Assembly: GCA_023920165.1 (NCBI GenBank)
Contig: CP089281.1
Coordinates: 2,046,001 to 2,110,000, forward strand
Direction of reading: 5' to 3'
From: Curvularia clavata
Taxonomy: Eukaryota
Length of the DNA stretch: 64,000 nt
Made by a program: the position numbers and the translations under genes. This document shows, one piece after another, positions 49,162-49,935 of this stretch (its first letter is position 1; each line of letters opens with the position of its first letter). Under the pieces are notes generated by a model. That model worked only from the letters and a program-made list of their open reading frames with translations, did not search any database and was not told the DNA's origin.

Positions 49162-49935
49162 TTACATATCGATATCTCCACCCTCTACCCAGGTTTTCGA
49201 TTGCCTATAGAGCAGGTCATGTTTGTCGCCAGCGGGCGTGCCTGCGTGCCGCCGATGCCCTGGCATATCTTTCAAAACTGTTACTCCCATCGTCGCTTCC
49301 TGGCAATAGGCGAGGCATTTATATCCATCGGGGTATGAATTGAGTTTTTCCATGTCCAATTTAGGTACTTGGCCAGCAACCACGGGAATGAGCTTATCCT
49401 TTTCATACCAATGTCGCACGAACCGCGCGCCCCAGTGACCATCTACCTTTTCGAAGAAGAAGCAGAATCGGCAATCGGCCTCAGCATCTACTTCTATACC
49501 ATCTAGGTCAAATCTTTGCGTGATGGTTGCTTTCATCTTTGTGACTGCTCGTTTTCCATCAGGGCTGATATCTGATGTGGTTCCATGGCAGCGATGCATG
49601 ATGAACGCGCCCTTGTCCATGCCAGCCTTTGATCCATTGATAAAATCGGAAAACAGAACGCGACCGGACCATGTGGTATACACATAAGCGCCTTCATGAA
49701 AGATCGACTCGAAGTTCTCCCACTCGCACGCGTCACTGTAGGATTTTGTCGTAAGTTTCGATGTTGAATGGGTTCACGTTAAGGGGCATTGTGCAACAAA
49801 AACATACCGGTAGCAAGGCCAGCCCTCTGCAAGCTCACGAAGCTTTGCTCTTTCCAAGACAAGGGTATCTGGGCCATTGTTGCGGATGGCTTTCGAGGGC
49901 CACCAATCGTCAGGGAGTGAATGCAAATCAGGCAT
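49162..49935 (-). CDS. PEP2/PPP2/AGDC1-like NTF2(SnoaL)-fold protein, putative cofactor-independent gallate/protocatechuate decarboxylase, 2 exons
   Basis: Intron 49807..49736; [68 protein letters not shown] matches the pea-pathogenicity-protein-2 family as I recall it. Confidence 0.8.

Follow-up and report, generated by a model that had tools for sequence, protein, structure and literature searches.

Background

The closest described relatives of the gene studied here are two fungal decarboxylases. AGDC1 of Blastobotrys (Arxula) adeninivorans (PDB 6W54, 7KD9) acts in tannin and gallate catabolism and prefers gallate, according to its description (PMC5605622). PPP2 of Madurella mycetomatis (7JMR, 7JMV) is a cofactor-free protocatechuate decarboxylase. 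Their attraction is that neither depends on prenylated flavin. Bacterial protocatechuate decarboxylases of the AroY/UbiD type have the same net reaction as the one proposed below, but their fold is unrelated, and they are described as dependent on prenylated FMN and oxygen-sensitive (PMC7862292, PMC12220188).

The functional residues of AGDC1 were named by Zeug et al. (PMC7862292). In that paper the catalytic dyad is D40/H86, and mutations of W35, R39, D40, T60, H86, E88, or Q192 are lethal to activity. E88 binds K+ on the trimer axis; the E88A variant is inactive, and K+ is needed in the assay. Salt bridges of R87 to D124 and D126' stabilise the strand twist, while Y146 and Y150 are said to bind the third hydroxyl of gallate.

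A further relative is PEP2 of Fusarium vanettenii (Nectria haematococca; AAK11167.1), known since 2001 only for raising virulence on pea. The preliminary description of our locus noted that it had been presented only as a pathogenicity gene, and in the available part of a 2026 bioRxiv preprint it is indeed treated as a virulence gene only. There it belongs to a pea-pathogenicity cluster of a dispensable chromosome, beside pisatin demethylase, and not to a quinate-utilisation (qut) cluster. In Aspergillus terreus, a gene listed as “NTF2 superfamily” (ATEG_07673a_new), the presumed orthologue of the gene studied here, lies in a second quinate-utilisation-like cluster together with AROM-like, qutE-like, qutB-like, qutC-like, qutA-like, and qutR-like genes, and no function is given for it (PMC10832562, Table S5). 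According to the literature, deletion of the A. niger gene NRRL3_06002, which is AGDC1-like but belongs to another clade, caused no growth defect on gallate. Family homology is therefore no guarantee of a pathway role.

The literature that we searched contained no assay of any PEP2-clade member and nothing that links quinate, PEP2, and a fungal cluster; it did not mention AN9274 either. Brückner et al. 2018 reportedly tested AGDC1 homologues in yeast, and a PEP2-clade member may be among them.

Here we describe a PEP2-type gene of Curvularia clavata and its surroundings in a stretch of 64,000 nucleotides (contig CP089281.1, positions 2,046,001 to 2,110,000), referred to as the window. All positions below are those of the window.

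Results and discussion

Gene structure and transcription

The gene, which had been described as intact and consisting of two exons, has this structure and lies on the minus strand (Table 1). It is transcribed and spliced: RNA contigs join position 49735 to position 49808, skipping exactly 72 nt, in all four runs examined (X1, X2, X9, and X11, the last being a metatranscriptome on record). The spliced product of 233 amino acids is letter-identical to the NCBI entry “hypothetical protein yc1106_10151 [Curvularia clavata]” (P0003). Exon 2 encodes most of the residues discussed below, namely D44, T64, W65, H90, R91, C92, H93, E128, D130, V149, H151, Y153, and Q188.

Table 1. Features of the PEP2-type gene and of the surrounding cluster (window positions)
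Feature	Position	Strand	Remarks
MFS sugar-type transporter, quinate-permease-like	44706..46044	-	at least 2 exons; domain match
SDH-like 1, second shikimate-dehydrogenase-family paralogue	46328..47329	+	domain match
3-Dehydroshikimate dehydratase (qutC/qa-4 type)	47847..48863	+	convergent with the PEP2-type gene; start is the first ATG of open frame 47805..48863
PEP2-type gene, exon 2	49162..49735	-	last base of R43, D44..M233, stop included; SnoaL_4 domain
PEP2-type gene, intron	49736..49807	-	72 nt, GTATGT..CTACAG (GT..AG); splits R43 codon after CG, before T
PEP2-type gene, exon 1	49808..49935	-	M1..Y42 and first two bases of R43 codon; holds W39 (= AGDC1 W35 clamp); covered by RNA contigs
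Intron in 5' untranslated region	49945..50000	-	56 nt; joint 49944->50001 in one run only (X1)
Degenerate QutA-like palindrome GGATACGGTCCTACCC	50112..50127	.	2 mismatches; 177 bp 5' of PEP2-type ATG; alone not above chance
SDH-like 2, shikimate/quinate-dehydrogenase-family paralogue	50551..51492	-	tandem, upstream of the PEP2-type gene
Maleylacetate reductase (Fe-ADH family)	51856..52935	-	3hl0, E 5.8e-108
Intradiol dioxygenase, hydroxyquinol 1,2-dioxygenase type	53303..54091	+	first exon(s) only; divergent from the reductase
Type II (catabolic) 3-dehydroquinase, qutE type	54544..55008	-	domain match
Quinate/shikimate dehydrogenase, qutB type	55351..56346	-	domain match
QutR-type repressor	56982..59348	-	shikimate kinase, dehydroquinase I, and shikimate-DH domains; domain match
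Perfect palindrome GGCTAAGTCCTTAGCC	59424..59439	.	qutR/qutA intergenic region
QutA-type Zn2Cys6 activator	59460..61616	+	domain match

Homology, predicted fold, and clade

The protein has a SnoaL_4 domain match (E 4.5e-08), and an NCBIfam search matched no family. Among PDB sequences, phmmer found PPP2 (7jmr, E 8.6e-48) and AGDC1 (6w54, E 5.8e-47, residues 11-233) over nearly the full length (residues 11/20-233), so the kinship to these two enzymes proposed earlier is confirmed at E ~1e-47. The AlphaFold2 model (pLDDT 89.1, pTM 0.87) superposes on both, with TMq 0.87 for PPP2 and 0.83-0.85 for AGDC1. The best Foldseek matches were 7jmr/7jmv (PPP2; TMq 0.87, rmsd ~2 A, 42% identity) and 6w54/7kd9 (AGDC1; TMq 0.79-0.85, 40% identity), and the TM of the model against AGDC1/PPP2 was 0.83-0.91. 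Bile-acid 7-alpha dehydratase, LinA, and scytalone dehydratase follow, with TMq of at most 0.50. Such dehydratases and dehydrochlorinases (TMq 0.41-0.50, 10-19% identity) share the core fold and the dyad, but they have no N- and C-terminal extensions, and their chemistry is dehydration or dehydrochlorination. Judging by sequence and model, the protein is thus a clear AGDC1/PPP2 homologue with a predicted NTF2-like barrel and long N- and C-terminal extensions.

The original Fusarium PEP2 shares 159 of 233 residues with the protein in a gap-free alignment (68%). Both have the motifs H-R-[C/I/V]-H, in the form HRCH, and [V/A]-x-H, with V and H. The A. terreus homologue (P0067) is also 68% identical, and homologues with 65-90% identity are distributed across several fungal classes. 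The only tree reported here, a quick one of 60 rows, separates the PEP2 clade (17 rows, SH-aLRT 94) from the HRE clade (7 rows, SH-aLRT 100). Fusarium PEP2 falls in the PEP2 clade through its 90%-cluster representative (P0076), and PPP2 falls outside it. The sequences thus assign the gene to the PEP2 clade, apparently a sister of the AGDC1/PPP2 decarboxylases. A search for longer homologues revealed no fused (Rosetta-stone) forms at E <= 1e-10, which is weak evidence, and the longer representatives P0185, P0155, P0158, and P0197 carry no informative second domain.

Active-site residues

The published functional residues have the equivalents W39, R43, D44, T64, W65, I88, H90, R91, Y153, and Q188. 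The Asp following the intron-split Arg codon and the His of the FIMHR motif had been picked as the catalytic dyad. They are D44 and H90, and they do align with D40 and H86 of AGDC1. The Trp clamp is retained as W39/W65 (W35/W61 in AGDC1) and the substrate anchors as R43, T64, Y153, and Q188 (R39, T60, Y150, and Q192). All the AGDC1 residues whose mutation is lethal are kept except E88. The dyad, the Trp clamp, the anchoring Arg, and the Thr, Tyr, and Gln that bind the hydroxyls are all shared with PPP2. As in PPP2, Val takes the place of Tyr146 of AGDC1, and Ser that of its cobalt ligand, but PPP2 has a loop of 17 residues between its strands 4 and 5 that is missing here.

Among the 120 closest homologues, H90, R91, Y153, and Q188 are each present in all 120. 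The D44 column contains 109 D and 11 gaps, the W65 column 110 W and 10 gaps. The columns of AGDC1 R39 (R 88, S 17, G 1, 14 gaps) and W35 (W 79, 34 gaps, 7 others) are more variable; we suspect that gene models with a misread intron are behind this.

Other positions distinguish the clade from AGDC1, and several of them from PPP2 as well. The K+ ligand Glu88 is replaced with C92, and this column contains C (101), I (11), or V (8) but never E; Glu is also absent here from 45 of 46 scorable environmental loci. The next position, Cys in AGDC1 and PPP2, is His in 117 of 120 homologues. Position 148, Val in AGDC1 and Leu165 in PPP2, is H151 here and His in 119 of 120. D124 of AGDC1 corresponds to E128, with Glu in 120/120, and D130 is kept in 120/120. 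V149 stands at the position of AGDC1 Tyr146 (V 115, A 5 of 120), and the cobalt-site residue of AGDC1 is absent. Hence the earlier view of an AGDC1/PPP2-like enzyme stands for the dyad, the clamp, and the anchors, but not for the K+-binding Glu88, and the identity is only 40-42%. Because H151 is near-invariant and replaces Leu or Val in the pocket, the substrate may differ from protocatechuate.

A model of three copies scored 0.95 against 0.00 for the best control, a score that shows likeness only and may echo known structures, because the trimers of AGDC1 and PPP2 are already solved. Among proteins solved as same-chain pairs, 21 of 30 attain the mark used, against none of 23 solved as single chains (among eukaryotes, 17/29 and 0/30). 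The runs shared no less than 93% of contacts, with a partner pLDDT of 90 or more. The modelled interface includes residues 89-96, R91 among them, and D130.

The quinate-utilisation cluster

The proposed convergence with a protocatechuate-producing dehydratase is borne out. The open reading frame 47805..48863 on the plus strand encodes a xylose-isomerase-like TIM barrel that matches the dehydroshikimate-dehydratase domain of QuiC (PDB 5hmq, E 6.4e-18). It also matches NF042435 (E 9.8e-25), though under the full-length cut-off of that model. The stop codons of the two genes are 298 bp apart.

According to domain matches, all six parts of the qut/qa system (activator, repressor, quinate dehydrogenase, type II dehydroquinase, dehydratase, and permease) lie at 44.7-61.6 kb, so the locus has the composition expected of a fungal quinate-utilisation gene cluster. 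Unlike the second qut-like cluster of A. terreus, which is listed without a dioxygenase or a reductase (PMC10832562), the cluster of C. clavata includes both. The three SDH-family genes of the cluster are mutually divergent (27-33% identical).

The dioxygenase matches hydroxyquinol-type enzymes (8r2v, E 4.7e-63; 1tmx, E 8.1e-52), and its best catechol 1,2-dioxygenase match is just 1.7e-21. The local ring-cleavage genes thus appear to be of the hydroxyquinol type, and catechol is not an obvious substrate. Domain matches of the window reading frames revealed no catechol 1,2-dioxygenase or muconate-pathway genes in the cluster, hence catechol as a product would have no obvious local sink. We know of no reliable sequence signature for the substrate of the SDH-like paralogues.

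Gene neighbourhood in other fungi

We collected 80 environmental fungal loci with a gene of the clade and regarded the 44 with at least 2.5 kb of flanking sequence as informative. A qut-type gene was found within 10 kb of the clade gene in 23 of these 44 loci, and in 14 of 28 once copies with 95% identity or more had been merged. The dehydratase lies within 2 kb in 9 of the 28 non-redundant loci. Its order and orientation relative to the clade gene are kept down to 58-65% protein identity, and three loci (L002, L011, L010) repeat the arrangement SDH-like 2, PEP2, dehydratase. Because the dehydratase neighbourhood recurs in other fungi, PEP2-type genes acquire the metabolic context that the preliminary description hoped to give them, beside a protocatechuate-making enzyme. 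The pair of dioxygenase and reductase is repeated in only 1/28 non-redundant loci; hydroxyquinol-pathway genes are also neighbours in one locus group (L006, L007, L009).

In the other 14 of 28 loci the clade gene lacks a qut neighbour and has heterogeneous surroundings. A comparison of 84 open frames from 12 such loci showed no shared alternative neighbourhood; housekeeping genes are among the heterogeneous matches. Loci L004 and L067 have a 2OG oxygenase next to the clade gene; L016 contains cupin, P450, and MFS genes.

Proposed function and its alternatives

We regard the protein as a putative cofactor-free decarboxylase of protocatechuate (or gallate) without a K+ site, presumably a homotrimer of the SnoaL_4 fold, that would take part in quinate/shikimate catabolism, and we assign this reading a probability of about 0.58. 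Since the identity is 40-42%, Glu88 is missing, the pocket contains a His, and the neighbours are of the hydroxyquinol type, both the decarboxylase activity and its substrate are what we infer here. The substrate would most likely be protocatechuate, formed from quinate or shikimate through the convergent 3-dehydroshikimate dehydratase, with catechol as the product; the conversion of gallate to pyrogallol is our second choice. R43 would anchor the carboxylate of 3,4-dihydroxybenzoate, T64, Y153, and Q188 would hold the ring hydroxyls, and W39 with W65 would turn the carboxyl group away from the plane of the ring. D44 may then prime H90, which would protonate the ring carbon as CO2 leaves. Unlike in AGDC1/PPP2, the strand of the catalytic His would not be held by a Glu-bound K+; the predicted trimer contact has Cys, Ile, or Val followed by a near-invariant His instead.

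Other readings share much of this evidence. The loss of the K+ site, which is needed to orient the catalytic His, makes one think of a ligand-binding protein with little or no catalytic activity, such as a protocatechuate buffer or sensor; the E88A mutation abolishes AGDC1 activity, and the clade has no Glu there. Yet the full catalytic set is strongly conserved at 65-90% identity across several fungal classes, R91, E128, and D130 of the strand-twist salt bridges are each present in 120/120, and the gene is transcribed and spliced, which makes such a protein very improbable. A different substrate or chemistry on the same fold and dyad seems unlikely, though less strikingly so: the protein could decarboxylate some other substituted hydroxybenzoate, for instance one that yields hydroxyquinol for the adjacent genes, or it could dehydrate or isomerise an intermediate of the quinate pathway. 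This would suit the clade-specific, near-invariant changes in or near the active-site strand (E88 to C/I/V, C89 to H, V148 to H, D124 to E), the separation of the PEP2 clade from the HRE clade, the dehydratases and a dehydrochlorinase among the fold relatives with the same dyad, and the hydroxyquinol-pathway neighbours here and in the above-mentioned locus group. Against it, the carboxylate binder, the binders of the catechol hydroxyls, and the decarboxylation-specific Trp clamp are all kept, and the dioxygenase and reductase accompany the gene in a single other non-redundant locus. We also know of no pathway leading from dehydroshikimate to a hydroxyquinol-yielding trihydroxybenzoate.

Shikimate dehydrogenases can make gallate from dehydroshikimate. 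The PEP2-type gene could thus serve a side branch in which an SDH paralogue oxidises 3-dehydroshikimate to gallate, the PEP2-type enzyme converts it to pyrogallol, and the hydroxyquinol-type dioxygenase opens the ring. The preference of AGDC1 for gallate agrees with such a branch, as do the polar H151 on the same strand face as the gallate-hydroxyl binders Y146/Y150, the divergence of the three SDH-family genes, the conserved position of one of them directly upstream, and a neighbouring dioxygenase that is not of the catechol type. We nevertheless consider this branch improbable. V149 is as in the protocatechuate-preferring PPP2 and not as Tyr146 of AGDC1, the gene conserved right next to the PEP2-type gene encodes the protocatechuate-making dehydratase, gallate formation by an SDH-like paralogue would be hypothetical, and the maleylacetate reductase has no clear role after cleavage of pyrogallol. 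Finally, the qut neighbourhood might be incidental, and the protein might mainly detoxify host phenolic acids during plant infection with no role in quinate catabolism. The original PEP2 does lie in a pea-pathogenicity cluster with pisatin demethylase (available part of the 2026 bioRxiv preprint), and half of the non-redundant loci have no qut gene nearby. However, half of the informative loci are within 10 kb of qut genes, for which chance would account in well under 1% of cases (an estimate, not a computed control), because a genome has one or two qut clusters. The conserved order and orientation with the dehydratase also argue against coincidence, and we give this explanation very little credence.

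If the decarboxylase reading is right, it may extend to the whole PEP2 clade, although we advance this extension tentatively and below even odds. The clade would consist of K+-independent decarboxylases in which a Cys or hydrophobic residue plus His replaces the Glu-K+ clamp. It would represent a previously unrecognised, widely conserved fungal exit from quinate/shikimate metabolism (dehydroshikimate to protocatechuate to catechol, or an unknown acid to hydroxyquinol), and PEP2 of the pea pathogen would be the same enzyme recruited for host phenolic acids. The linkage to the dehydratase gives PEP2 a testable biochemical role and suggests that quinate/shikimate breakdown has a branch absent from the classical qut/qa model. 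A natural clade without the K+ site, 65-90% conserved across fungal classes, would also provide new candidate enzymes for muconate production, and a natural experiment on the need for the K+ clamp in AGDC1/PPP2-type chemistry.

Candidate activator sites

Two activator-type sites had been proposed upstream of the PEP2-type gene. Two palindrome-like matches are present in its 5' region, but they are only versions with two mismatches (Table 1) and three mismatches (50077-50092, read by eye), and better ones lie elsewhere in the cluster. The strict QA-1F consensus is not enriched in the window (9 matches against 6.8 expected; 34 of 100 shuffles reach 9). The relaxed QutA-like palindrome GGNTAA-N4-TTANCC with at most one mismatch occurs six times against 1.33 expected, a number that none of 100 shuffles reaches. 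All six sites (47666, 48206, 53094, 56995, 59387, and 59424) are away from the PEP2-type gene. Those with one mismatch include 47666, 5' of the dehydratase, 53094, between the reductase and the dioxygenase, and 59387, and the site at 59424 is perfect.

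Gene structure and transcription

The PEP2-type gene was found on the minus strand as an intact two-exon gene, in agreement with the preliminary description. Joined by coordinates, its exons give 702 nt and a protein of 233 aa, letter-identical to the public protein P0003 (NCBI name "hypothetical protein yc1106_10151 [Curvularia clavata]"). The region was compared with four public RNA runs, one of which is on record as a metatranscriptome. In contigs from 4/4 runs 49735 is joined to 49808 and precisely the intron is missing, which shows that the gene is transcribed and confirms the modelled splicing.

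In one of the runs, X1, the contig over SDH-like 2 (the shikimate-dehydrogenase-family, SDH, paralogue 5' of the PEP2-type gene) runs beyond the stop codon of that paralogue (50143-50434, minus strand). It skips 50312-50433 (122 nt, GT..AG, minus strand), and at 50215 it has a loose end of 12 letters that agrees with 50131-50142. In X1, the PEP2 contig extends up to 50115. Thus the transcripts of the two tandem genes may overlap, or the genes may have read-through transcripts in common.

Features of the quinate cluster and its surroundings (window positions)
Feature	Position	Strand	Remarks
Open frame with DDE_1 endonuclease domain	12118-13854	-	578 aa
SnoaL_2-domain frame	26721-27302	-	
FAD_binding_3 monooxygenase fragment	28453-29121	+	beside the SnoaL_2 frame
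GH92 alpha-mannosidase-type gene	35319-38308	-	three frames
Zn2Cys6 transcription factor	39455-40930	-	follows the GH92 gene
Beta-lactamase-family (esterase-like) gene	41716-43722	+	multi-exon; directly upstream of the cluster permease
MFS permease			cluster
SDH-family paralogue	46328-47329		cluster
Dehydroshikimate dehydratase	47805..48863	+	cluster; qutC/QuiC type by sequence match
PEP2-type gene	49935..49162	-	cluster
PEP2-type exon 1	49935..49808	-	ATG through base 2 of an Arg codon
PEP2-type intron	49807..49736	-	72 nt, GTATGT...CTACAG; sequence and RNA contigs
PEP2-type exon 2	49735..49162	-	
Second SDH-family paralogue (SDH-like 2)	50551-51495		cluster
Maleylacetate reductase	within 51856-54091		cluster; 3hl0, E 5.8e-108
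QutA-like site, near-palindromic	53094-53109		between reductase and dioxygenase
Intradiol dioxygenase, hydroxyquinol type	within 51856-54091		cluster; divergent from reductase; 8r2v, 4.7e-63; 1tmx, 8.1e-52
Type II dehydroquinase			cluster
qutB-type dehydrogenase	55351-56346		cluster
QutR-type repressor			cluster
QutA-type activator			cluster
Alpha/beta-hydrolase gene	62927-63982	+	just past the QutA-type activator

The quinate cluster

The quinate utilisation (qut) cluster occupies 44.7 to 61.6 kb of the window and is extended by five genes. Between the end of the dehydratase frame and the stop codon of the PEP2-type gene, which is on the other strand, there are 298 bp; the genes are therefore convergent, as had been proposed. 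The two activator-type sites reported upstream of the PEP2-type gene were the weak part of that observation. The relaxed palindrome GGNTAA-N4-TTANCC occurs six times in the cluster with at most one mismatch (1.33 expected; 0/100 shuffles reach six), and its best copies are in the 5' regions of qutR/qutA, the reductase/dioxygenase pair and the dehydratase. The only copies in the 5' region of the PEP2-type gene have two mismatches (at 50112) and three mismatches (at 50077). No enrichment in the cluster was found for the strict QA-1F consensus.

The dioxygenase matches the best catechol 1,2-dioxygenase (1.7e-21) more weakly than it matches hydroxyquinol-type enzymes. Neither a hydroxyquinol-forming enzyme nor a catechol-branch gene was found in the cluster, where the ring-cleavage genes are of hydroxyquinol type. 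The reductase and the dioxygenase lie inside the quinate cluster.

The three shikimate/quinate-dehydrogenase-family genes of the cluster are only 27-33% identical to each other, and the QutR-type repressor carries a further SDH domain. The SDH-family paralogue adjoining the PEP2-type gene is kept at that position in other fungi.

Homology, fold and residue equivalents

The window protein has a SnoaL_4 domain (Pfam). Among sequences of solved structures its only significant matches, both spanning almost its full length, are the assayed decarboxylases PPP2 of Madurella (7jmr, E 8.6e-48) and AGDC1 of Arxula (6w54, E 5.8e-47). An AlphaFold2 model built on 39 homologues (pLDDT 89.1, pTM 0.87) gave the same two proteins as best Foldseek matches (PPP2: TMq 0.87, 42% identity; AGDC1: TMq 0.79-0.85, 40% identity). 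The next folds, bile-acid 7-alpha dehydratase, LinA and scytalone dehydratase, reach a TMq of at most 0.50. Alignment (E about 1e-47) and superposition (TMq 0.79-0.87) thus bear out the proposed relatedness to AGDC1 and PPP2.

D44 and H90 align with the catalytic dyad of AGDC1, so the Asp and His singled out earlier were chosen correctly. The other catalytic and substrate-binding residues are also present in the window protein; the K+ ligand is absent.

Residue equivalents from the HMMER alignment (window number = AGDC1 number + 4 up to about residue 135), roles in AGDC1 (Zeug et al. 2021, PMC7862292) and residues among the best 120 of 607 homologues
AGDC1	Window	Role in AGDC1	Best 120 of 607
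W35	W39	tryptophan clamp	W 79, 34 gaps, 7 other residues
R39	R43	carboxylate anchor	R 88, S 17, G 1, 14 gaps
D40	D44	catalytic dyad	
T60	T64	binds ring hydroxyls	
W61	W65	tryptophan clamp	
I84	I88	channel bottleneck	
H86	H90	catalytic dyad	H 120
R87	R91	bridges to D124 and D126'	R 120
E88	C92	K+ ligand on trimer axis; E88A inactive	C 101, I 11, V 8
C89	H93		H 117, Y 2, N 1
D124	E128	bridged by R87	E 120
D126	D130	bridged by R87 (D126')	D 120
Y146	V149	contacts third hydroxyl of gallate (Val in PPP2)	V 115, A 5
V148	H151	(Leu in PPP2)	H 119, M 1
Y150	Y153	binds ring hydroxyls	Y 120
Q192	Q188	binds ring hydroxyls	Q 120

The PEP2 clade

A word-indexed search found 607 homologues at E <= 1e-5. The best 120 of these, which belong to the Dothideomycetes, Sordariomycetes, Eurotiomycetes and Leotiomycetes, share 65-100% identity with exon 2 and are far closer to the window protein than AGDC1 and PPP2 are. 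We suspect that the less clean R39 and W35 columns, near the intron, reflect faulty gene models.

An exhaustive search of 50%-identity representatives, at a threshold of E <= 0.001, gave 563 proteins. Of the representatives, 65 reach 190 aa or more, and 21 of these 65 have the H-R-E of AGDC1 and PPP2, mostly with D..D and V..L; a few have the H-R-C-H with V..H of the window protein, and many distant members have H-F-L-G with Arg at the 146 position. In a quick maximum-likelihood tree of 60 rows, an "HR" supergroup (SH-aLRT 99) splits into a Glu-bearing HRE clade (7 rows, SH-aLRT 100) and the clade of the window protein (17 rows, SH-aLRT 94). The 90%-identity cluster of P0076 (Fusarium vanettenii) includes GenBank AAK11167.1, "PEP2 [Fusarium vanettenii]", which is identical to the window protein at 159/233 positions (68%), gap-free, and shares its HRCH and V..H motifs. 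By sequence, the window gene therefore belongs, strictly speaking, to the PEP2 clade, whereas the "PPP2" of the structural paper falls in the Glu-bearing clade.

Several orthologues of 233-238 aa (P0040, P0063, P0086, P0100, P0117) carry unrelated names in public records, among them "catabolic 3-dehydroquinase" in Ilyonectria and Colletotrichum, "Vacuolar protease A" in Coniosporium, Bogoriella and Exophiala. This looks like annotation transfer out of merged adjoining gene models, and the former label fits a qut neighbourhood.

Neighbourhood in other fungi

With a query alignment of 39 clade members, 80 loci with a PEP2-type gene were obtained from JGI metagenome contigs and searched by tblastn with the cluster proteins of the window. 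The PEP2 match was scorable in 46 loci, the remaining 34 being too short or interrupted; in 45/46 the E88 position is not Glu and the V148 position is His. In 44 loci the flank on one side is 2.5 kb or longer, and 23/44 have a qut-type gene within 10 kb. Loci were then merged wherever their PEP2 fragments shared 95% identity or more, which left 59 groups, 28 of them informative: 14/28 have a qut neighbour, 9/28 have the dehydratase within 2 kb, and one (L006, L007, L009, L058) has the dioxygenase and reductase pair alongside a qut neighbour. The pair adjoins the PEP2-type gene in L006, L007 and L009. The order and orientation of SDH-like 2, PEP2 and convergent dehydratase are repeated in L002, L011 and L010.

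No common alternative context was found for the 14 qut-less informative groups. In two qut-less loci (L004:1863-2835, L067:4015-5047) the PEP2-type gene is immediately followed downstream by a 2OG-Fe(II) oxygenase gene, and an RTA1-like gene also occurs; this is possibly a second neighbourhood that recurs.

The enzyme family and its mechanism are already known. In the literature searched, we found no published account of the separateness of the PEP2-bearing clade from the assayed enzymes, of the replacement of the "essential" K+ ligand in it, or of its repeated embedding in quinate clusters beside dehydroshikimate dehydratase. Closest in print is an A. terreus row without annotation in Table S5 of Martins et al. 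2023 (PMC10832562), for the "NTF2 superfamily" gene ATEG_07673a_new of a second quinate-utilisation-like cluster. A. niger NRRL3_06002, of the other clade, is 51% identical to Agdc1p, strongly induced in a tannic-acid repressor mutant and yet not needed for growth on gallate (Arentshorst et al. 2021, PMC10512348).

Proposed function

We infer that the window protein is a cofactor-free protocatechuate decarboxylase giving catechol and acting in quinate/shikimate catabolism; gallate may be an alternative substrate. The residues for 3,4-dihydroxybenzoate recognition and for the proposed protonation-decarboxylation are all strongly conserved, the most conserved neighbour gene makes protocatechuate, and at position 146 the protein shares Val with PPP2, which prefers protocatechuate. 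Glu-bound K+ cannot clamp the H90 strand here. Packing by Cys or hydrophobic side chains, together with the near-invariant His and the R91-E128/D130' bridges that are kept, would take over from the clamp, making the enzyme K+-independent.

In a three-copy model, residues 89-96 and D130 are predicted at the contact between subunits, where R91 would touch H93 of the adjacent one. The model scored 0.95 against 0.00 for the best control (contact agreement between runs at least 93%, partner pLDDT at least 90), but as trimers of relatives are solved, the score shows likeness and may reflect structures already known to the predictor. This mark was reached by 21/30 proteins solved as one-chain pairs and 0/23 solved as single chains (17/29 and 0/30 for eukaryotes).

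Several observations fit protocatechuate decarboxylation poorly. AGDC1 is killed by E88A, while the window protein has C92 at that position; the near-invariant polar H151 occupies a pocket position that is Val or Leu in the assayed enzymes; and half of the informative loci are outside qut clusters. Given the hydroxyquinol-type local genes, either catechol leaves the chemistry of the cluster or the real product differs. No assayed PEP2-clade enzyme was found in the literature searched (Brückner et al. 2018 was outside that search). These points support three rival readings: a gallate to pyrogallol branch fed by an SDH-like paralogue, another substrate or another chemistry, and a non-catalytic binding protein. 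The Val at position 146 points to protocatechuate rather than to the gallate branch, and the conserved recognition and decarboxylation residues argue against the other two readings.

Other features of the window

The hydrolase past the QutA-type activator matches 3-oxoadipate enol-lactonase (TIGR02427) weakly, at E 1.2e-09, far under the model cut-off. The region 26721-29121 lies about 20 kb away from the quinate cluster and possibly forms an aromatic or secondary-metabolite locus of its own; the DDE_1 frame is probably a pogo/Tc1-like transposase.
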